Assembly (NCBI GenBank): GCA_017520825.1
Contig: JAFXEX010000014.1
Coordinates: 69,118 to 133,117 of the forward strand
DNA from: Clostridia bacterium
GTDB taxonomy: Bacteria > Bacillota > Clostridia > Oscillospirales > SIG627
Length of the DNA stretch: 64,000 nucleotides
Direction: 5' to 3'
Shown: piece by piece, positions 1-9,707 of the stretch
Layout of the letters: every line of letters begins with the position of its first letter
How positions within the stretch are numbered: position 1 is the stretch's first letter
Notes under the pieces: generated by a model
The model's input: the letters and a program-made list of their open reading frames with translations, nothing else
Told to the model about the DNA's origin: nothing
Databases searched by the model: none
Position numbers and translations under genes: made by a program

Positions 1-1844
1 AGCTTGAGGAAGAAAGGCTTCCTAAGGTGAAAGAGTATACAAAAAAGATAGCTGAAATAAAAGCTATTTTGCCTGATTATGACGAGCTAATTCAAAAGCA
101 AAAGACTTTTGACGATAATAAAGCATTCATTGATAGTAGCGGCGAAAACATTTCTGAAATTGAGAGAGGTATTCAAGCTTTAAGCGATGAAATAATTCTT
201 CTAACCGAAGAGAACAAAACTCTCGAAAAAAACGGCGAAGAAAAGCTGAAACTTGAAGCTGAAAAGCAAAAGCACGAAGAAGGAAGAAACAAACTTGAAG
301 ATTTAGACAAGAATATTGTGATTGCTTTCGACTATCATAAGGTATTCCTTGCTGCCAATGGTGATTATTTGGAGAAGGTCAAAGAGGCAGAAGAATTAGA
401 CTGTGAATACAAGACAATGACAAGGATTTATCTCGAAGCACAAGCAGGAATTTTGGCAGAAACTTTAGAAATAAATAAGCCTTGTCCTGTATGCGGTTCA
501 ACAACACATCCGCAAGTCGCAATTAAACCTGTTGATGTACCTACTAAGGATCAGCTTGATGACCTTCAGGATAAACTTAATATTGCCAATCAAACTGCAA
601 ATGAAGCAAGAACAGAGGCGGGCAAATTAAAGGGTGTGTCAGAAGAAAAAGAGATTACTGTAAAGAAGGATATAGTATTACTTTTGGGTGATGATGTATC
701 ATTTGACGAAGCACGGTCTGTAATTGCATCGAAAATATCTGACATTGATTCTTCGGTTAATGGTTTGAATTCACAGATAAAAGAAGTTCAGGACAAAATT
801 GAACGCAAAAAAGAACTTGATGAGCTTTTACCTGGAAAGAATTCTACTCTCGAAAAATCAAAAGAACAATTAACAGAAATTAAAGATAAGGTAAAAGTAA
901 GAACAGCAGAAAATATAGTTCTGGAAAAACGAATTTCCGAATTGTTGGAAAAGCTTATGTTTAAAACAAAAGCTGATGCGGAAAGCCAAATAACCGCCTT
1001 AGAAGATGAAGCAGAAGCTATTCAAAAAGCTTATGATGACTTGTTAAAAGAAGTGAATGATAACAAGGAAAAGCTTGCGTCACTAAAATCGGCAAAAGAT
1101 GAGATTTTAAAGCGCATTGGCAATGGCACGGATATTGACTTGGATAAAGAAAAAGAAAACAAACAATTTTTCGAAGAAAAGCAAGCTGTGCTTGACACAA
1201 ATTCAAAAATAGTACATAGTCGCAAAACATCTAACAAATCTTCTCTCGATAACATTTTGCAAAAGCTTGATGAAATTAAAATCGTTGAAGAAAAGTGGAC
1301 TTGGATGAAAACACTTTCCAATACTGCTAATGGAAACTTAAGTGGAAAAGAAAAGATAATGCTCGAAACTTATATTCAGATGACTTATTTTGACAGAATT
1401 ATAAATCGTGCCAACACAAGATTTATGGTTATGTCAGGCGGGCAGTATGAATTAAAGAGAAGAAAAGAAGCCGAAAATAACCGAAGTCAAAGTGGCCTTG
1501 AATTAGATGTTATAGACCATTACAACGGAACAGAAAGAAGCGTAAAAACCCTGTCTGGCGGTGAATCGTTTAAGGCATCTCTTTCTCTTGCTCTTGGCCT
1601 TTCCGATGAAATTCAATCATCTGCAGGCGGAATAAAGCTTGATACAATGTTTGTTGACGAAGGATTTGGATCTCTCGATGACGAATCCTTGGCACAAGCA
1701 ATAAAAGCCCTTTCATCGCTTGCTGAAGGAAACAGGCTTGTTGGTATCATTTCGCATGTAAACGAACTTAAAGACAAGATCGATAAACAGATAGTTGTAA
1801 AGAAAGAGAAAACAGGCGGAAGTAATGTTACTATTGTTGTATAA
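1..1844 (+). CDS. sbcC: SbcC/Rad50-family SMC-like ATPase, C-terminal ~610 codons (5' end outside the window)
   Basis: The frame is open from nt 3 through the listed GTG at 27, so the gene is cut by the window edge. It has a long K/E-rich coiled coil with a CPVCGS (CxxC, zinc-hook-like) motif, then the ABC signature LSGGESF, Walker B LDTMFVDEGFGSLD and H-loop GIISHV. Confidence 0.85.
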   Translation, partial: LEEERLPKVKEYTKKIAEIKAILPDYDELIQKQKTFDDNKAFIDSSGENISEIERGIQALSDEIILLTEENKTLEKNGEEKLKLEAEKQKHEEGRNKLEDLDKNIVIAFDYHKVFLAANGDYLEKVKEAEELDCEYKTMTRIYLEAQAGILAETLEINKPCPVCGSTTHPQVAIKPVDVPTKDQLDDLQDKLNIANQTANEARTEAGKLKGVSEEKEITVKKDIVLLLGDDVSFDEARSVIASKISDIDSSVNGLNSQIKEVQDKIERKKELDELLPGKNSTLEKSKEQLTEIKDKVKVRTAENIVLEKRISELLEKLMFKTKADAESQITALEDEAEAIQKAYDDLLKEVNDNKEKLASLKSAKDEILKRIGNGTDIDLDKEKENKQFFEEKQAVLDTNSKIVHSRKTSNKSSLDNILQKLDEIKIVEEKWTWMKTLSNTANGNLSGKEKIMLETYIQMTYFDRIINRANTRFMVMSGGQYELKRRKEAENNRSQSGLELDVIDHYNGTERSVKTLSGGESFKASLSLALGLSDEIQSSAGGIKLDTMFVDEGFGSLDDESLAQAIKALSSLAEGNRLVGIISHVNELKDKIDKQIVVKKEKTGGSNVTIVV

Positions 1845-1929
1845 ATTTTTTCTTGAATATTTAGTGTAATATTTGCAACGTTTTTTCTTTGATATAAGTC
1901 TCACAGTCCGTTTTATAGGACAGTTGATG

Positions 1930-1938
1930 TGATATAAT
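1930..1938 (+). promoter_or_regulatory. Extended -10 element TGaTATAAT upstream of the 1970 gene
   Basis: TGATATAAT was read directly, 32 nt upstream of the ATG at 1970. The -35 region is poor (GTTTTA). Confidence 0.4.
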
Positions 1939-1969
1939 TATATCAACAAAGGAAAGGTGGTAATAGAAT

Positions 1970-2554
1970 ATGGAAACAAAAGGTGAAATCAACATTTCTC
2001 CAAACTACAACAAAGATAGTTATCTTAACTTAAACCTCTCTTTGCAAAGTAGTGAGTCCGATTGGAATATGGCTGTTGCAATTTTGAAAGACAGAATTGA
2101 AGGCAGGTACTTTAATCAAATCGATTTACTTTCAAATGATGTTAATGCAAACGGATTCACTATAATGGCCTTGAATTGTTTGCTCATTGAAACATTGTTT
2201 CAGTTTAGAGATGGTGAAGAAGAAACCCCCCGTCCAAACAACAAGACCTACCCGGCGTTTCTATTACAGGAGTTTTCGTCCGTTTTTAGAGATCAAAAAA
2301 CAGCGAAAAGTTTTTATGCAAATATTCGTTGTGGTATTCTTCACTCTGCTCAAACAAAAAATGAATCGAGACTATCTGATAGAGAAGATGTTGTTGTGAC
2401 TTTTGAAGGAAACACTCTGGTCGTATCTGTAAAAGGCGTATCCTCATTGTTAAAGACGTATTTTGAACATTATTTGCAAAAACTTTCAAATCCAAAAGAA
2501 GTAACCTTGCGCAATAATTTCATAAATAAAATGAAATTTGTGTGCCGAAAGTGA
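1970..2554 (+). CDS. Hypothetical 194-aa protein with a HEPN-like R-x4-H motif (tentative)
   Basis: A GGAAAGGTGG RBS precedes the ATG. The protein contains NIRCGILHSAQ, which has the R-x4-H spacing of HEPN RNases, after a helix carrying an acidic residue (LLIETLFQF). The family call rests on motif spacing only. Confidence 0.6.
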   Translation: METKGEINISPNYNKDSYLNLNLSLQSSESDWNMAVAILKDRIEGRYFNQIDLLSNDVNANGFTIMALNCLLIETLFQFRDGEEETPRPNNKTYPAFLLQEFSSVFRDQKTAKSFYANIRCGILHSAQTKNESRLSDREDVVVTFEGNTLVVSVKGVSSLLKTYFEHYLQKLSNPKEVTLRNNFINKMKFVCRK

Positions 2555-2564
2555 GGAGATAAAC

Positions 2565-2774
2565 ATGTTTGAACCTTGGCAACTGGCAATGATTGATGAT
2601 GCCGGTTATAATGGTATTCGTGACGAGCACATTAACCGTGTATCAGAATCCTTGCTTTCAAGCGATTTAACTGGTATTGACCACAATACATTTGATTATC
2701 ACTGCCACAAATGTGGCATTGATCCAAATAATTTTACTAAACGCGATTTAGAAAAATTGTTCGAAAACATATAA
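2565..2774 (+). CDS. Small hypothetical protein (69 aa)
   Basis: The ORF track starts at 2538. However, GAGGAG lies 6 nt upstream of the ATG at 2565, which is 11 nt after the upstream stop, and the next gene follows 13 nt after this one's stop. The protein contains a CHKC pair. Confidence 0.5.
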   Translation: MFEPWQLAMIDDAGYNGIRDEHINRVSESLLSSDLTGIDHNTFDYHCHKCGIDPNNFTKRDLEKLFENI

Positions 2775-2786
2775 AAGGAGAGCGTT

Positions 2787-4097
2787 ATGAAATCAGTAGA
2801 TACAAAGGTTTACAAAATCACAGAAACTATAAGAGAAAAAGCCAACTTAGCAGATGAATTATACCAAAATAAAGCAAGCAAAGTTCACGAGGCGCTTTCT
2901 GACACTATATATCTTTCGCAAATCAATTCACTAAGACGGATTGTTGCAGATGCATTAAAGGCAGCCGAAGAATTATATTTAACATACGAAGCTCTGGTTC
3001 GTACCTTGGATTCTAAATGCAAAAGCATTATTGACGAGGGCGCTTCAGCAGACGCAGTAAAGGAAGTTTGTGACTTAATTGAATATCTAAACGCCGAATC
3101 ATCTTCTATTGATTGCAATTTTACTTTGTCAATCGAAATGATTGATATGGGTGACCTTGGTGGAATGAGCTTTATTGCCAGTGTTGAAGCTCAAGCAATA
3201 GAAGCTCTTTGGAAATCAAATTATTCTACTATGCCAGAAGTTATAGAGGCCGAAAAACAAAGTAAAATTATTGAAAATAAAGAAAAGGATGAATTAAAGA
3301 AAGCCTTAAAAGAGGTAGAAAAGAAAAAGAAAGAGAACGCAGAGCTTGCTAAAGAAATTGAATTAAAAAACCAAAAAGCAAAAGAGTATATGGATTCAAT
3401 AATACAAGAGTGCAAACAATGCATATCGGATTATAAAAATAGGCTAGAAGAAGAATTAGAGGCACAGATAAGTCAACTTGAAAAAAGCAAAGAAACTGAA
3501 ACTTTGGAAATCAAGAAAAAAATAAGTAAAAAACAAGATGAATTGTCAAACATGGGACTTTTTAACTTTTCACAAAAAAAGATCTTGAAAGACGAAATAA
3601 GAAATTTATCAATTGCTTTAGAAAAACTTAATACTTCAAACATAGTTTCACAAAAAAACAATTACTTCCGTGAATTGATTGACGGGACATTAAAAGATTA
3701 CAAAAAAACTATTGATGAATATTTGTCAAAAAGATTCCCAAAAACTGACGATGAGAAATCTTCAACTGTTGAACTTGAACCTGCTGATATCATTTTACAA
3801 GTCATGGATTCTGCGGATTCACTTATGACTATTAGTGATATCAAACTTGCTGATTATAGAATTCCGGACTCTAATCAAAAAGTTTCAGCCTTTGTTCGCC
3901 AATTGGTTGTAGAAGGTCTGTTAATGCGAAAGGAAATAAAGGAATGTGCATACTTTAAAATAACGCCAAAAGGTAGGTTGAAAATAGCTGAGAAAACTGA
4001 TCCTTTACCTGTAGAAAAATATCGTGAAAACCCAGAGTATGCTAACACTCCTATACCTGAATCACCAAGCGTGATGACAATTTTTAAACAAACATAA
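2787..4097 (+). CDS. 436-aa coiled-coil protein, paralog A (possible C-terminal winged-helix)
   Basis: An AAGGAGA RBS is present. The central region is a highly charged K/E coiled coil. The motif LSNMGLFNFSQKKILKDEIRNL and the C-terminal tail ...NTPIPESPSV are both shared with the 5238 gene. The C-terminal VSAFVRQLVVEGLLMRKE...ITPKGR segment looks wHTH-like. Confidence 0.8.
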   Translation: MKSVDTKVYKITETIREKANLADELYQNKASKVHEALSDTIYLSQINSLRRIVADALKAAEELYLTYEALVRTLDSKCKSIIDEGASADAVKEVCDLIEYLNAESSSIDCNFTLSIEMIDMGDLGGMSFIASVEAQAIEALWKSNYSTMPEVIEAEKQSKIIENKEKDELKKALKEVEKKKKENAELAKEIELKNQKAKEYMDSIIQECKQCISDYKNRLEEELEAQISQLEKSKETETLEIKKKISKKQDELSNMGLFNFSQKKILKDEIRNLSIALEKLNTSNIVSQKNNYFRELIDGTLKDYKKTIDEYLSKRFPKTDDEKSSTVELEPADIILQVMDSADSLMTISDIKLADYRIPDSNQKVSAFVRQLVVEGLLMRKEIKECAYFKITPKGRLKIAEKTDPLPVEKYRENPEYANTPIPESPSVMTIFKQT

Positions 4098-4141
4098 AGT
4101 TATTTGATATTTCTTAGTAGGATTTATAAGGTCATGAGCAA

Positions 4142-4192
4142 ATGGGACTTTTTGGTTACAAGAAACTTATTGATGTGATTTCCAGATTATAA
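4142..4192 (+). other. 16-codon mini-ORF or gene fragment (MGLFGYKKLIDVISRL) resembling the paralog motif
   Basis: It shares atgggacttttt with the 2787 gene at the nucleotide level. Its translation mimics the MGLFNFSQKKILKDEI motif and is bounded by TAA on both sides. It is likely a remnant of a third paralog. Confidence 0.3.
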
Positions 4193-4595
4193 TCAACGCG
4201 TTCCTTTCGGTAAGCCTTTATTTCCTGACTTCCGGCTATCTCGACATTTTTTTACCTATATGATCTGTGTAGTATGCGCAGATACCTATAACAAAAAAAT
4301 GTATTTCTTTGATCAAGAAGGTAAGGAACGAATACTTTGAGTTTGCTCCTTTGCGCAAAGCCGGAACGCAGAAAACACTTAACGGGACAAACCAATAATT
4401 AGGGGGGTGAAGAAATATACTAGGAATATCGTTACTTTGTCAGAGACAGTTCCCTATCATTTCTGAATAATACTTTACAGAAAATTGAACTGGAAGCATC
4501 TGATGACAAGTAGACAGTAAAAATAAAAACCACAATCGGAAGACAAAGAATATAATGCAGTCTAATTAAAAATATGAATTTAAAGGAGAACTATT

Positions 4596-5192
4596 ATGAA
4601 CGAATCAAAATACTTACAACAAACACACTTTTATGTTCCTGACGAATATGTTAGTGCCAAGGCACAGGAGGAAACAGATATAAACTTATCTTCTTTTGCG
4701 GGAGCGAATTTCACCTTTGATATTATTGAGTAACCATTTCATTGTGTAATTGCTTCTATTGAAGGTGCTATTGAGTTTAAGTTATATGTTCGCAGTGAAA
4801 TGGGAGCCTTTCTTGAAAACCCTGATCTCGGAGTGAAATTGTTCCGAGAACCTCGATAAGATGGAAAAGAGTTTGAGGTTACTGCAAATATAGGAAGAAT
4901 TGGAGATGTAGGACAAATTTTTGGTATTTTCCTCAATGTAGTTGGGGGGATAAGTATATTTGCGGAGGAAAAAGAGCTTGTAACTGAACTTTCAAATATT
5001 GACACTGAGTCTGAAGGTTTCCTTATCAAACTCGACGGTGATGAACTTCTGTTTAACAAGGTTGCTGGAAAGGCCCGCCCTGATATGGCTTGCACTACCT
5101 TGTTCGGAGGTGTCCAGATGATGCGCCCTTACCAGGACGAAATTATGGATAGCTGGATGGGCGAGATGATGTCGATTGAAGAAAAAAATTGA
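4596..5192 (+). pseudogene. About 199-codon reading frame interrupted by two in-frame TAA codons (4731, 4857)
   Basis: I translated it by hand. An AAAGGAGA RBS precedes an ATG at 4596, and a single frame runs to TGA at 5190 with TAA at 4731-4733 and 4857-4859. The amino-acid composition looks protein-like on this strand. The opposite-strand ORFs in the track look like antisense artefacts. Confidence 0.5.
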
Positions 5193-5237
5193 ACAGATAG
5201 TACAAAATTTCAAAGCATAAAATCCAGGAGGATAAAA

Positions 5238-6575
5238 ATGAATGCTCAAGAATATTATTCTTATGCGAAAGAAAAAATTTATAATTTTAAGAAAAGGTGG
5301 GAAGCTTTTACCATTGAAGCTCCCAACAAACTTTCTAACTTAATAGCAGAGGGGATTTCGTTTTCAAAAACGCTTGGTATTTCTGAAGATATACATACCG
5401 GAGAAATAAAACTCAAGACTGAGTATGAAATAAATTCAAATACAGATTTTGCTGAAGGGTATATTGGAGTTATAAAGTATCGGGTAGAAAAATATGCAGA
5501 AGAATTAATGGGAATAGTTGAAGATATCGATGTTAATTTATATACATTTGTTTTCGAAGGGCTTGATAACGATTTATTTAATGATTTTGTTGATATTATT
5601 GACGAATGCATCAAATATTTTTCCGATATATGCATAAATATTTCTAGCGGACGAATTGGTACAACTGTTCCTGATTCGGCGATATCAATACAAAAGAAAT
5701 GGGAAAATACTTTTCCTGATGAGGTCAGAAAAAACGAATCTGAAAGATTAGGCATTCCCATTGAAAATCTGGGTAAACATATAAAATACCTTGAAGCAAA
5801 AAAACTATTGAAAAATGCAACAACATCGACTGAGATAAATGATGCCAAGGAGATTTTTATCTTACTTAATGGATATTTAGACTCCTCAGGGCTTGTATCA
5901 TTATGTGATGAAAAAAATTTAGAGTTAGAGAAAAACAAAGTAGAAAAAATCATTAATATGAAGCAAAGAGCAGCGGAAGGAAGACGAAAAAGAGAGGAAG
6001 AATTACGGCAAAAGAGGGAGAAGGAAGAAAAGCAAGAGGCTGACTATTATGCAGTTCAAAACGAATGTGAACGCAATCTTGCTGAATTTAAAAATCAGTT
6101 AGAAGTACAGATTGAAATTGAAATTAACATTGCAAAAAAAGAAAACGAAGCGCTGTTGTTAGAAGCAAAAGAAGAATTTACAACAATGGAAAAAGAACTG
6201 TCATCACTTGGATTCTTTAAGTTTTCTGACAAGAATAGGCTAAAGAATGAAATCAACAATTTGCAAAACAAAATAGACTTTCTTTCTTCAGAGCAACAAG
6301 TTGCAGAACTCGAAAAACATTTAAAATCAAAAGCTATCAAGGTACAAAAGAAATATAAAAAACAACTTGAAGATTTTTTTGATGAGCTTTTTCCGTTTGA
6401 AAAGCAGTTTGACACTGCCAAAAAAGCTTATATTGATTCTAAAGGATATTATGACGAGAAGCGTGCTGAAGAATATGCATACCGAAAGGTTATAACCAAA
6501 GAATTTGAAAGAGCACCGGGAATGGAAAATGCAACAGTGCCTTCCATACCTAACGTCAAGGACGCATTAAAATAA
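5238..6575 (+). CDS. 445-aa coiled-coil protein, paralog B
   Basis: A CAGGAGGA RBS is present. It has a charged coiled coil (RRKREEELRQKREKEEKQE). The motif LSSLGFFKFSDKNRLKNEINNL and the tail NATVPSIPNV match the 2787 gene. Confidence 0.8.
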   Translation: MNAQEYYSYAKEKIYNFKKRWEAFTIEAPNKLSNLIAEGISFSKTLGISEDIHTGEIKLKTEYEINSNTDFAEGYIGVIKYRVEKYAEELMGIVEDIDVNLYTFVFEGLDNDLFNDFVDIIDECIKYFSDICINISSGRIGTTVPDSAISIQKKWENTFPDEVRKNESERLGIPIENLGKHIKYLEAKKLLKNATTSTEINDAKEIFILLNGYLDSSGLVSLCDEKNLELEKNKVEKIINMKQRAAEGRRKREEELRQKREKEEKQEADYYAVQNECERNLAEFKNQLEVQIEIEINIAKKENEALLLEAKEEFTTMEKELSSLGFFKFSDKNRLKNEINNLQNKIDFLSSEQQVAELEKHLKSKAIKVQKKYKKQLEDFFDELFPFEKQFDTAKKAYIDSKGYYDEKRAEEYAYRKVITKEFERAPGMENATVPSIPNVKDALK

Positions 6576-6632: not shown

Positions 6633-7718
6633 GTGGAAAAGTTGAAATACATAATTAACGATAAAAAATATCGTTTCAAATCGGCATTTGATACTGAAAC
6701 GGGTGCATATGTCCGTACCGGCGTGCTTGATGAAAACGACAAAGATACAGGTGTTGATCCCTTTATGGCATCCTATCCTCATCTAATTGACGTTGGCATT
6801 ATGGGTCACTGTATTCACGGTAAGACAGGACTTTGCGCCAAAGCAGGTATCGGATGCTATCAAAGCGGTATGCTTGTGGAACAACCTAATATGTCGGTTG
6901 AGGATTTCAGGTGGATTGCAGAACAATCTAAAGGAAAATGCAACCAATTTGCTCTCGGTGGCAGAGGTGATCCTGATCAGCACGAGCATTTTGAGGAAAT
7001 ACTAAAAATATGCCGAGAAAATGTGCTTGTACCCAATTTCACAACATCCGGTTATGGTATGACACCTGAAATTGCTAAACTGTGCAAGCAATATTGCGGT
7101 GCTGTGGCGGTAAGCTGGTATAGAAACGACTATACTTTGAAAGCTATTCAGATACTTCTTGATGCCGGTGTTAAAACCAACATTCATTATGTGCTCGGTA
7201 AAAATAGCATTGACGAAGCGATCGAACGTTTACAAAAGAATGACTTCCCACAAGGAATAAATGCAGTGATTTTTTTATTACATAAACCCGCAGGACAAGG
7301 CACGAAGGCAAATATGTTAGAGGCAATTGACCCAAGAGTTGCGGAATTTTTTGCACAGGTAGACAAGCAGCACCCCTTTAAGGTTGGTATGGATAGTTGT
7401 AATGTTCCCGGCGCCATCAATTTCTGCAAATCCATTTTGCCTGAATCCCTTGATACTTGCGAAGGTGGAAGATACAGCTGCTATATAGGTGCTGATATGA
7501 TTATGGTTCCTTGCAGTTTCGACCAAGAGAAGCGTTATGAGGTTTCACTGCGTAAAATGTCAATTACAGAAGGGTGGAATAGTGAACCCTTTGAGCGATT
7601 TCGCAACAAAATGCGTGGTGCTTGTCCTGATTGTGAAAAGAAAGAACTTTGTATGGGTGGATGCCCACTAATGCCCGAAATTGTTTTTTGTACAAGCAAA
7701 AGCAGAATAATATTATAA
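6633..7718 (+). CDS. Radical-SAM-fold / SPASM-domain protein lacking the canonical CX3CX2C motif
   Basis: The C-terminus CPDCEKKELCMGGC matches the SPASM signature C-x2-C-x5-C-x3-C, preceded by further Cys residues. GGRGDP and NFTTSGYG resemble the rSAM GGE and TNG motifs. The N-terminal Cys triad is GHCIHGKTGLCAKAGIGC (C-x7-C-x6-C). The start may instead be the TTG at 6642, because the GTG at 6633 lies inside the GGAGGTG SD. Confidence 0.8.
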   Translation: MEKLKYIINDKKYRFKSAFDTETGAYVRTGVLDENDKDTGVDPFMASYPHLIDVGIMGHCIHGKTGLCAKAGIGCYQSGMLVEQPNMSVEDFRWIAEQSKGKCNQFALGGRGDPDQHEHFEEILKICRENVLVPNFTTSGYGMTPEIAKLCKQYCGAVAVSWYRNDYTLKAIQILLDAGVKTNIHYVLGKNSIDEAIERLQKNDFPQGINAVIFLLHKPAGQGTKANMLEAIDPRVAEFFAQVDKQHPFKVGMDSCNVPGAINFCKSILPESLDTCEGGRYSCYIGADMIMVPCSFDQEKRYEVSLRKMSITEGWNSEPFERFRNKMRGACPDCEKKELCMGGCPLMPEIVFCTSKSRIIL

Positions 7719-8499: not shown

Positions 8500-9459
8500 A
8501 TGTTATTAGCTGACAGCTTAGTAGAGGCATTGAGTTATACTGACTTGTATAATAAATTATCTGGAGTTAAGGTTTTTTGCGAAGAATCCGTTCGTGATGA
8601 GGCAAAGGGGTGTTTTTTAACCGAATTTGAAAAAGAGTGGCAAAATGCGTTAGAAAAAGCCGAAGAGGAATACGGAGAACTTGAAGAGGATGAGGAAAAT
8701 ATTCCATGTGAAATAATTGATAAAAATTATGGTTTTTTCATATCAACCGATGGTTTAGATATTCGACATTCTTATGGTGATTATTTCGCCCCTGATTATG
8801 GCATTGTCGCTTTTAATCAGGCACTAAAAAACTTAAAAAGTACTTATTCTCAAATTGAGTATGAAGGATATTTAGGATTTTTGTATTCTGATGTGTCTGC
8901 GGGAGAAGTGTATCAATGGGAGTTGTCTTCTAAAGAGAAAGATGACAAAAAAATATATGATTTTGTTGGTGAGATTTTAGGTGAAGTTTTTGCATCAGAC
9001 TTATATATCCCCGAAGAGCCACTGGATGCTGATGGATTGAATTTTGTAATAACAGGAAAATTGAATCATTTTGAAAACAGAGAAGAAATATCTGAATATA
9101 TTGAAGATTTAGGAGGAAGTGTTACAAGCGGTATCTCTAAAAACACTAATTATTTAATCAATAATGATATAAATTCCACTTCGTCAAAAAATATTAAAGC
9201 AACTGAGTTGGGTGTTCCTATTATTAGCGAAAGTGAATTTATAGCAATGTTTGGTGATCCAAGTGAATTTGATATAGAAGAATCAGACTTTTGGAGAAGT
9301 TTAGAAGAGAGTATTACGGGATATAATGATGATTCTGCAGAAGTAACGGAGAATCTATATGCATATTCAAATTGGATAAAAAAAGCTGATTTTGATAGGG
9401 CTATAAGATCAATTGCTCACATTGTAGGTGAAGAGGAAGATAACGATTGGGATGAATAG
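8500..9459 (+). CDS. Acidic protein with a BRCT domain (LigA-C-terminus-like)
   Basis: An AAGGAGAAG RBS is present. The segment GLNFVITGKLNHFENREEISEYIEDLGGSVTSGISKNTNYLI...ATELGVPIISESEFIAMF follows the bacterial BRCT pattern of NAD-ligase C-termini. The flanks are very acidic. Confidence 0.75.
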   Translation: MLLADSLVEALSYTDLYNKLSGVKVFCEESVRDEAKGCFLTEFEKEWQNALEKAEEEYGELEEDEENIPCEIIDKNYGFFISTDGLDIRHSYGDYFAPDYGIVAFNQALKNLKSTYSQIEYEGYLGFLYSDVSAGEVYQWELSSKEKDDKKIYDFVGEILGEVFASDLYIPEEPLDADGLNFVITGKLNHFENREEISEYIEDLGGSVTSGISKNTNYLINNDINSTSSKNIKATELGVPIISESEFIAMFGDPSEFDIEESDFWRSLEESITGYNDDSAEVTENLYAYSNWIKKADFDRAIRSIAHIVGEEEDNDWDE

Positions 9460-9632: not shown

Positions 9633-9707
9633 TGGTGACCCGTACGGGAATCGAACCCATGATTCCACCTTGAGAGGGTGGCGTCTTAGCCGCTTGACCA
9701 ACAGGCC
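9633..9707 (-). tRNA. tRNA-Glu (anticodon CUC), CCA encoded
   Basis: The reverse complement GGCCTGTTGGTCAAGCGGCTAAGACGCCACCCTCTCAAGGTGGAATCATGGGTTCGATTCCCGTACGGGTCACCA folds as a cloverleaf. It has a 7-bp acceptor stem, anticodon stem CCACC/GGTGG, loop CTCTCAA and a GGTTCGATTCC T-loop. Confidence 0.9.

Follow-up and report, generated by a model that had tools for sequence, protein, structure and literature searches.

Introduction

SbcCD is the bacterial enzyme of the Mre11/Rad50 type, which cuts DNA hairpins and ends. Here we describe a locus in which a gene for an SbcC/Rad50-type ATPase is followed on the same strand by genes for proteins of 194, 69 and 436 amino acids (aa), hereafter p194, p69 and p436, the first of which carries an R-x4-H motif. 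The locus occupies the first 4,097 nucleotides (nt) of a 64,000-nt stretch of a Clostridia bacterium genome (Oscillospirales, SIG627; GenBank assembly GCA_017520825.1, contig JAFXEX010000014.1, positions 69,118 to 133,117 of the forward strand), the whole of which is referred to below as the window. An initial annotation, made from the letters of the sequence alone, had suspected p194 of being a HEPN RNase and had taken the ATPase and the genes behind it for a possible single defence system.

HEPN enzymes of bacterial defence provide the closest described systems. AbiV, a HEPN RNase of Lactococcus, depends on a small gene next to its own, which neutralises it (bioRxiv 10.1101/2024.05.05.592566). 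In RloC a Rad50-like zinc-hook ATPase and a HEPN anticodon nuclease are joined in one protein, and the ATPase switches the nuclease on in response to DNA (PMC3458546; PMC3710099). The HEPN RNase ApeA is activated by deoxydinucleotides from DNA breakdown (bioRxiv 10.64898/2026.01.26.701840), a mode of activation by which HEPN proteins might be linked to nucleases. HEPN proteins are recognised by an R-x4-6-H motif that closes helix 3 and reaches into the loop before helix 4; the R is immediately followed by a polar residue, mostly N, D or H, an acidic residue, typically within E-x3-K/R, stands upstream on a helix, and inserts are frequent (PMC3710099).

In the locus described here the ATPase is one half of a complete and intact sbcDC operon, itself compositionally foreign to the host. 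What is new is the large unannotated family to which p194 belongs, with its catalytic-looking triad of residues and, in one clade, its docking behind DNA-processing gene pairs. The reading that we favour, with about as much confidence as doubt, is that sbcDC and p194-p69 are neighbouring independent modules in a mosaic imported island and that p194 is a stand-alone HEPN-like RNase effector of abortive infection.

Results

Conservation and Predicted Fold of p194

The gene of p194 lies at 1970..2554 on the + strand, and the octapeptide NIRCGILH, in which the initial annotation had noticed the R-x4-H spacing of HEPN active sites, is present as residues 118–125 of its product. An R-x4-H string alone is not rare by chance. 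The relatives of p194 are numerous: a word-indexed search returned 287 homologues, and a profile search yielded 2,321 clusters at 50% identity with E ≤ 1e-3, 1,199 of them with E ≤ 1e-10, the family being spread over Firmicutes, Rhizobiaceae plasmids, Verrucomicrobiota and Acidobacteriota. In an alignment of 230 relatives reaching down to ~30% identity, R120 and H125, whose invariance had been proposed in advance as a check, are retained without exception (230/230 each), and position 74 is always acidic (E in 215 sequences, D in 15). Arginine 42 is kept in 229 and G122 in 225 of the 230 sequences, and position 121, right after R120, is C in 217 of them, N in 12 (~5%) and S in one. The acidic residue stands in an E-x3-Q context (Q78 in 215/230) and not in E-x3-K/R. 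The R-x4-H motif was also kept in 142 of 147 cluster representatives from a profile search that had been made without the motif. Such strict invariance of R, H and the acidic residue over 230 sequences points to catalysis and not to a purely structural role. We also considered a metal site or a disulfide formed by C70, C121 and C192, which is unlikely because these cysteines do not co-vary.

No model of Pfam, PADLOC (including ApeA), NCBIfam or PHROGs matches p194. The plasmid copies of the gene are labelled 'hypothetical protein' in RefSeq, and one family member bears the name 'Apea-like HEPN domain-containing protein' in UniRef; we treat the latter as an automatic label because the Pfam Apea model gives no match to that member. 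Comparison of the family profile with 66 neighbouring proteins by hhalign, two Ymh-type HEPN proteins among them, produced no signal, and a scan of viral contigs together with tblastn against phage genomes found no relatives of p194. In some relatives (P0207, P0234, P0250 and P0264) a C-terminal AIG2/GGACT (gamma-glutamyl cyclotransferase-like) domain is fused to the p194-like domain; we found no paper discussing this fusion, the one paper in which AIG2 and HEPN both occur being a classification of reverse transcriptases.

The AlphaFold model of p194 (predicted local distance difference test score, pLDDT, 96.4; predicted template modelling score 0.92) comprises a long helix (29–81), helices 90–101 and 109–126, a beta insert (134–153) and helices 154–173 and 178–191. 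The R-x4-H motif is placed at the C-terminal end of helix 109–126, before the beta insert and a further helix. A Foldseek search of this model against BFVD returned two uncharacterised phage proteins with E ~0.01. By its conserved residues and predicted topology p194 fits HEPN, and we call it a candidate HEPN-like RNase (R120-C-G-I-L-H125 with E74 and R42), membership of HEPN proper not being established.

p194 and p69 Form a Mobile Cassette

The reading frames called at 1–1844 (ATPase), 1970–2554 (p194), 2565–2774 (p69) and 2787–4097 (p436) are co-directional and are separated by 125, 10 and 12 nt, exactly as the initial annotation had them. The small protein p69 (2565..2774, + strand; 69 aa counted from its ATG) is acidic, with an isoelectric point (pI) of 4.7 and a conserved C-x2-C, p194 being near-neutral (pI 7.7). 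Scans of p69 against Pfam, PADLOC, NCBIfam and PHROGs detected no domain, and in particular no antitoxin-type DNA-binding domain.

Between the ATPase gene and p194 lies a leader (1904..1969, + strand) that looks like a promoter and operator region. It contains the perfect palindrome GTCCGTTTTATAGGAC at 1906–1921 (GTCC-GTTTTATA-GGAC), which covers the −35 position, the extended −10 element TGATATAAT (TGnTATAAT) at 1930–1938, which had already been recognised in the initial annotation, and a ribosome-binding site, GGAAAGGTGG, at 1951–1960. For comparison, 85 loci were fetched by means of the family motif (numbered with the prefix L; L001 is a contig identical to the window DNA); in the close clade, with 61–89% p194 identity, ten distinct island variants could be read. 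The leader, with palindrome, TGnTATAAT and ribosome-binding site, is kept in six of the ten, whether an SbcC gene, a UvrD gene, an SMC-like gene or non-coding DNA stands upstream; the remaining four, all of the UvrD type, have no such leader and only 35–37 nt between uvrD and p194.

The limits of the exchanged unit can be read directly from the DNA. When L001 was compared by blastn with L086, L105, L008 and L102, homology was confined to p194-p69, ending near the end of p69, plus ~65 nt upstream in three of the four cases. The divergence of neighbouring genes is discordant as well: L001 and L086 have unrelated upstream genes but p194 copies of 89% identity, L086 and L092 share UvrD genes that are 95% identical and p194 copies that are only 63% identical, and between L001 and L088 SbcC is 58% and p194 81% identical. 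These boundaries and the discordant divergence show that p194-p69 is a discrete mobile cassette, usually with a putative promoter of its own. The palindrome at 1906–1921 may serve as an operator; alternatively, it may indicate where recombination delimits the cassette on the left.

The p69 gene thus lies inside the exchanged DNA, and its copies directly after p194 are 78% (L088), 68% (L086) and 36% (L008) identical to that of the window. It accompanies p194 only in the close clade and is absent near more distant relatives.

Genomic Neighbourhoods of the p194 Family

The relatives of p194 are found in defence islands and mobile elements, a setting that the initial annotation had anticipated for the locus. 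One relative (47% identical) follows the Hachiman genes hamA and hamB in Clostridium beijerinckii, one lies at a prophage end in Romboutsia and one shares its operon with genes for an SNF2 helicase, a DUF1156 methylase and a Piwi protein; others stand beside CBASS cyclases, resolvases, ResIII helicases and Ymh-type HEPN genes, or on plasmids of Bacillus and Rhizobiaceae. Some are found among plain housekeeping genes (L013). In the 85 loci no homologue of the window's SbcC, SbcD, p69 or p436 was seen near any relative of ≤58% identity.

In the close clade, p194 is found downstream of a nuclease-plus-motor gene pair, which is SbcD-SbcC in L001, L088 and L096, a DEDD-type exonuclease of 418–425 aa with a UvrD-like helicase in L086, L092, L099, L105 and L107, and an Mre11-like phosphoesterase with an SMC-like ATPase of 788–793 aa in L008 and L102. 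The SMC-like ATPase has no zinc hook (checked in L008), and phmmer detected no relation between the L008 pair and SbcCD of the window. Near the relatives of ≤58% identity (~60 loci) such a pair was not seen, the Hachiman case excepted. Close-clade variants are flanked by AbiEi/AbiEii, TnpV or integrases, AbiEi/AbiEii standing upstream of the nuclease-motor pair in L088 and L096.

The exonuclease of the DEDD/UvrD islands bears its DEDD (DnaQ-like) domain at the C-terminus, the helicase is a UvrD/GajB-like protein of ~700 aa, and a helix-turn-helix gene precedes the two in L086 and L092; the exonuclease of L086 weakly touches the PDC-S48 model. This pair, which PADLOC does not describe as a defence system, may itself be a candidate for one. 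The cargo downstream of p194 (L086, L088, L092, L105, L107 and L008) includes large BspA-type LRR_5 proteins, DUF4132, Sel1 repeats and a 163-aa protein, and the same islands carry a gene pair of DUF2201 (VWA-like) and AAA_5 (MoxR-like) type. The recurrence of this cargo suggests that rumen and gut Clostridia draw on a common pool of conflict-system cassettes.

The ATPase Gene and Its sbcD Partner

The ATPase gene runs off the left end of the window (1..1844, + strand, frame 3), and the 3' two-thirds that are present encode residues ~310–922 of a 922-aa SbcC/Rad50-type ATPase. Its translation has KPCPVCGST, the ABC signature LSGGE, Walker B (DEGFG) and the H-loop (SHV), which bears out the motifs named in the initial annotation and makes it a genuine SbcC/Rad50-type protein with a zinc hook. 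SbcC_Walker_B (PF13558) matches it with 40.8 bits against a cut-off of 27, and the NCBIfam models of SbcC and Rad50 match as well.

The exact p194 sequence is present on nine public contigs, three of which (L001–L003) extend leftwards and are identical to the window DNA. On these three, and outside the window, an sbcD gene (379 aa, Metallophos and SbcD_C domains) lies directly upstream of the 922-aa sbcC, overlapping it by 4 nt. SbcD passes TIGR00619 (161.5 bits against a cut-off of 77.65) and has all of the phosphoesterase motifs (DLH, GD, GNHD and GHIH). In the full-length SbcC of L001, Walker A stands at residue 35, CPVC at 470, which is the midpoint of the 922 residues, LSGGE at 826, DEGFG at 861 and SHV at 893. 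Because sbcD is directly upstream and passes TIGR00619, the ATPase belongs to an ordinary-looking sbcDC operon and is not an orphan awaiting an effector. The SbcC scores below the curated NCBIfam cut-offs (TIGR00618, 244.4 against 478.5 bits; sbcc_Staph, 329 against 920), so that by its sequence it is a shorter and divergent form of SbcC. More than 120 clusters of SbcC of ~921 aa were found in metagenome-assembled genomes of Oscillospiraceae and Clostridia, in a smooth gradient from 78% to 57% identity, and this type of SbcC is therefore common in the wider lineage. Readings of the ATPase as a Lamassu or MADS component were set aside, the PADLOC matches to LmuB and mad3 being weak and the SbcD partner and zinc hook genuine.

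The initial annotation had regarded an sbcD gene directly upstream, if it belonged to the only sbcCD locus of the genome, as a sign of a housekeeping role. The first half of this is what was found, yet sbcDC has the composition of the island. The block sbcDC-p194 stands in differing chromosomal surroundings in three genomes, with AbiEi/AbiEii or TnpV adjoining in two of them.

Composition and Borders of the Island

The G+C content is 32–38% in the first 10,000 nt of the window and ~47% elsewhere in it. At third codon positions (GC3) it is 0.23–0.35 across the island genes, including sbcC (0.29), against 0.49–0.55 for lepA, hemW and the RNase J gene of the core; the AT-rich composition noted in the initial annotation as unlike that of the core genome was thus borne out. 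The left edge of the AT-rich block falls exactly at sbcD, the two genes further left having 47–48% G+C. On the right the composition steps up at ~10 kb, and the island ends after a gene with a BRCT domain, adjoining a tRNA-Glu (CTC) gene (ARAGORN; 9633..9707, − strand) with its 3' end towards the island. In every island examined p194 is AT-richer than its neighbours. The best explanation is a horizontally acquired, AT-rich mosaic of ~12 kb, running from sbcD to the BRCT-domain gene and abutting tRNA-Glu, which was assembled from modules exchanged separately; the locus described here is its left part. There is no integrase gene in the island. Attachment-type repeats of the tRNA-Glu end at the left border were looked for and the idea was dropped, no common word of ≥10 nt being found. 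Patches of low G+C at ~53.5, 58.5 and 61.2 kb were not accepted as further islands, as they are short and have no open reading frame of ≥120 aa.

p436 and Other Island Genes

The gene of p436 (2787..4097, + strand) follows p69 after 12 nt and appears to be lineage-specific: a search of 5.8 billion proteins returned only p436 itself, and scans against Pfam, PADLOC, NCBIfam and PHROGs gave nothing usable, apart from a weak, non-significant LmuC match (E 0.005). The initial annotation had treated p194, p69 and p436 as a trio, which does not hold as one conserved unit, since p194 and p69 are exchanged separately with their own putative promoter and p436 has no relative among those proteins. The same annotation saw in p436 a coiled coil and, possibly, a winged helix at the C-terminus. 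For the coiled coil there is support in the single-sequence AlphaFold model, in which a central helix (156–254) reaches pLDDT 60–90 in a protein of pLDDT 49 overall. A winged helix is plausible but unproven: the C-terminal part has pLDDT <40, and the best match among PDB sequences, in which its segment QKVSAFVRQLVVEGLLMRKEIKECAYFKITPKGR is aligned to the recognition helix and wing of AspA, a winged-helix protein, is not significant (E=0.6). The sole detectable relative of p436, a weak paralogue, is a 445-aa coiled-coil protein at 5238–6575, at the head of a second gene block (28% identity over 144 residues, across the coiled coil; E ~1e-12 to 1e-13 in a small database), which itself has no family match.

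The 1.1-kb gap between these genes (4098–5237) contains relics at 4177–4389, the last third of a 200-aa protein, and at 4424–4504, the first 27 residues of a 196-aa protein; intact, adjacent versions of both are present in the related island L105 (56–59% identity). The island is therefore decaying or mosaic, and the gap is not a regulatory region. The product of 6633–7718 has a SPASM domain and is radical-SAM-like, with C-x8-C-x6-C at residues 60–75 instead of the canonical CxxxCxxC; its match in PHROGs is phrog_7293, whose function is unknown. The gene directly after p194 in L092 encodes a 90% identical protein, and relatives are present in L099 and L102 too, which makes it a recurrent companion of p194 islands. 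The product of 8500–9459 (319 aa) is very acidic, with a pI of 4.1, and has at its C-terminus a BRCT domain resembling the one in NAD-dependent DNA ligase; among the PADLOC models it fits the defence candidate PDC-S48 (E=1e-11), with a weak match to GapS2 as well.

Discussion

In our favoured reading sbcDC would work on its own and not as the dedicated ATPase of the downstream genes, and p194-p69 would be a self-contained two-gene cassette driven by its own extended −10 promoter, with p436 probably transcribed by read-through from it. p194 is predicted to be a small, metal-independent HEPN-like RNase, probably a dimer by analogy with other HEPN enzymes, in which R120 and H125 at the helix end are the proposed catalytic residues together with E74. 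As an abortive-infection or toxin effector it would, once triggered, cut cellular RNA (tRNA or rRNA), and growth would stop. For p69 we infer a role as inhibitor or trigger adaptor of p194 in the close clade.

Several observations weigh against this reading. The suspicion that p194 is a HEPN RNase was reasonable and finds support in the hallmarks of the motif and in its place at the end of a helix; at the level of profiles and solved folds there was no significant match. A Pfam scan with E up to 10 of 44 and then 113 diverse members gave scattered noise and no HEPN model, the family profiles had zero matches among PDB sequences, and no PDB chain reached E<1 with Foldseek, whose top 14 matches included two HEPN proteins, AbiV (E=3) and AF0298 (E=6.6), neither of them significant. 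The model has a single 53-residue helix (29–81) where canonical HEPN has a helix hairpin, and the Cys after the R is atypical for HEPN, the RN variant being the classic form. As to p69, L092, L099, L107 and all relatives of ≤58% identity are without it, and so are most family members. Finally, in the close clade p194 lies downstream of a same-strand nuclease-plus-motor pair in ten of ten distinct island variants, directly adjacent to it in nine. This placement is more regular than loose clustering in defence islands would predict and is not fully explained by independent modules. In the four variants with 35–37 nt between uvrD and p194, the spacing and the lack of a separate promoter suggest co-transcription with uvrD.

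The pair placement is what keeps alive a looser version of the ATPase-plus-effector system proposed in the initial annotation, which in its original form is not supported, given the sbcD partner and the many p194 relatives, the majority, with no SbcCD nearby. According to this alternative, p194 (with p69) is the effector of the upstream DNA-end-processing machine, be it SbcCD, the DEDD-exonuclease/UvrD pair, the Mre11-like/SMC-like pair or Hachiman HamAB: the machine would attack or sense foreign DNA, and the ends or degradation products would switch on RNA cutting by p194, in the manner of a 'split RloC' or of ApeA acting in trans, both of which serve as precedents (PMC3458546; PMC3710099; bioRxiv 10.64898/2026.01.26.701840). 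The pair types are interleaved on the scale of p194 identity, so that the adjacency of p194 and a pair must have survived several swaps, and the two SbcCD-like types are not detectably homologous to each other; the relative behind hamA-hamB and the promoterless uvrD variants fit this view too. We nevertheless consider such coupling rather unlikely. No such pair other than Hachiman was found among the ~60 loci of more distant relatives, the recombination breakpoints fall exactly between pair and cassette, six of the ten variants have the conserved promoter of their own, and in L102 the pair is not adjacent to p194, with seven other genes and a gap of 426 nt in between. Moreover, the ten variants are not independent observations because they are related mosaic elements, and nuclease-plus-helicase pairs are common defence cargo anyway. 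The broadest form of the idea, that p194 represents a new widespread family of minimal HEPN-type effectors plugged behind interchangeable DNA-end-processing machines and licensed in trans by their products or state, is in our opinion quite doubtful; if it were true, a canonical-looking SbcCD could be the sensor arm of an abortive-infection system.

That p194 matches no HEPN profile or structure with statistical significance could also mean that it is no HEPN RNase at all, and that the locus is simply the lineage's normal repair nuclease next to unrelated cargo of a mobile element, in which case p194 might, for instance, bind nucleic acids or a ligand, counteract defence or help to maintain the element. 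The canonical form of the operon, its intact motifs and the smooth identity gradient of the 921-aa SbcC clusters, which looks like vertical inheritance, agree with this, as do the plasmid copies of p194, whose neighbours are small hypothetical genes in arrays such as accessory or establishment regions typically contain, and the AIG2/GGACT domain of some relatives, an unusual partner for HEPN. On the other hand, the GC3 of sbcC is far from that of the core, the AT-rich block begins exactly at sbcD, the sbcDC-p194 block moves between surroundings in the company of AbiEi/AbiEii or TnpV, and the invariance of R, H and the acidic residue speaks for catalysis; we regard this explanation as improbable. 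A plain toxin-antitoxin pair that stabilises the island or element and has no part in phage defence appears to us very unlikely. The 10-nt spacing of the two genes, a near-neutral larger protein with an acidic small partner, the movement of the unit between elements, the AbiE-type toxin-antitoxin neighbours in L088 and L096 and the AbiV precedent of a neutralising adjacent small gene (bioRxiv 10.1101/2024.05.05.592566) are all in line with addiction. However, the order of the genes, with the putative toxin first and the small partner second, is unusual, p69 has no detected DNA-binding domain of the antitoxin type, and p194 can evidently be kept without p69, because most family members have none.

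The p194 family, with more than 2,300 clusters, has no name in Pfam, NCBIfam, PADLOC or PHROGs, and a family model would improve the annotation of defence systems. The invariant R/H/acidic triad together with the defence-island and mobile addresses makes it a good candidate for a new HEPN-type abortive-infection effector, and the placement behind nuclease-motor pairs throughout one clade of rumen and gut Clostridia gives a concrete handle on a possible link between DNA-end processing and RNA-targeting suicide, such as RloC and ApeA suggest. For island scans the locus is also a caution: where a window ends in an SbcC-like ATPase gene, that gene may belong to an ordinary sbcDC operon, even within an island.

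Comparison with Known Systems

The upstream genes resemble classical SbcCD in the sbcD-sbcC operon form with its 4-nt overlap, in the Metallophos and SbcD_C domains, in the ABC motifs and in the mid-protein CPVC hook. They differ from it in the length of SbcC (922 aa, whereas the curated models have 1,007–1,130 positions) and in its scores under the NCBIfam cut-offs, in a composition foreign to the host core and in the AbiE and TnpV genes that adjoin in relatives. With Lamassu the locus has in common an SMC/Rad50-like ATPase near an effector gene, and PADLOC LmuB models weakly match the SbcC head and coiled coil. These matches reflect generic similarity of ATPase heads and coiled coils, however; LmuA is lacking, LmuC matches only p436 and only weakly, and the ATPase comes with a zinc hook and with a bona fide SbcD as its partner. 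From type II toxin-antitoxin systems the p194-p69 pair is set apart by the restriction of p69 to the close clade instead of the whole family and by the absence of a detected domain in p69.

The combination of a zinc-hook coiled-coil ATPase of the Rad50/SbcC type with an R-x4-H protein recalls RloC and PrrC. Here, however, the two are separate genes, unfused and divided by a promoter-bearing gap of 125 nt, the ATPase is accompanied by an SbcD of its own, recombination moves the p194 cassette independently and no PrrC or RloC model matches p194. ApeA, a single-gene HEPN defence system (PF18739), is likewise a stand-alone protein with a HEPN motif found in defence islands, and it likewise has an insertion between helices 3 and 4. 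It is a protein of ~580 aa whose N-terminal and Mid domains form a ligand pocket and which assembles into ring oligomers, whereas p194 has only 194 aa and is matched neither by PF18739 nor by the PADLOC model.

In size and layout the nearest analogue of p194 appears to be AbiV (PDB 9bj7). The structural match, third in the Foldseek ranking against the PDB, is not significant (TM-score ~0.33 at the E-value given above), there is no sequence similarity to p194, and abiV2, the partner of AbiV, lies upstream and acts as RNA, whereas p69 lies downstream and looks like a conserved protein. Nevertheless, AbiV (201 aa) and p194 (194 aa) are both mostly helical proteins with a beta-hairpin insert and an R-x4-6-H motif, and each has a small partner gene at its side.

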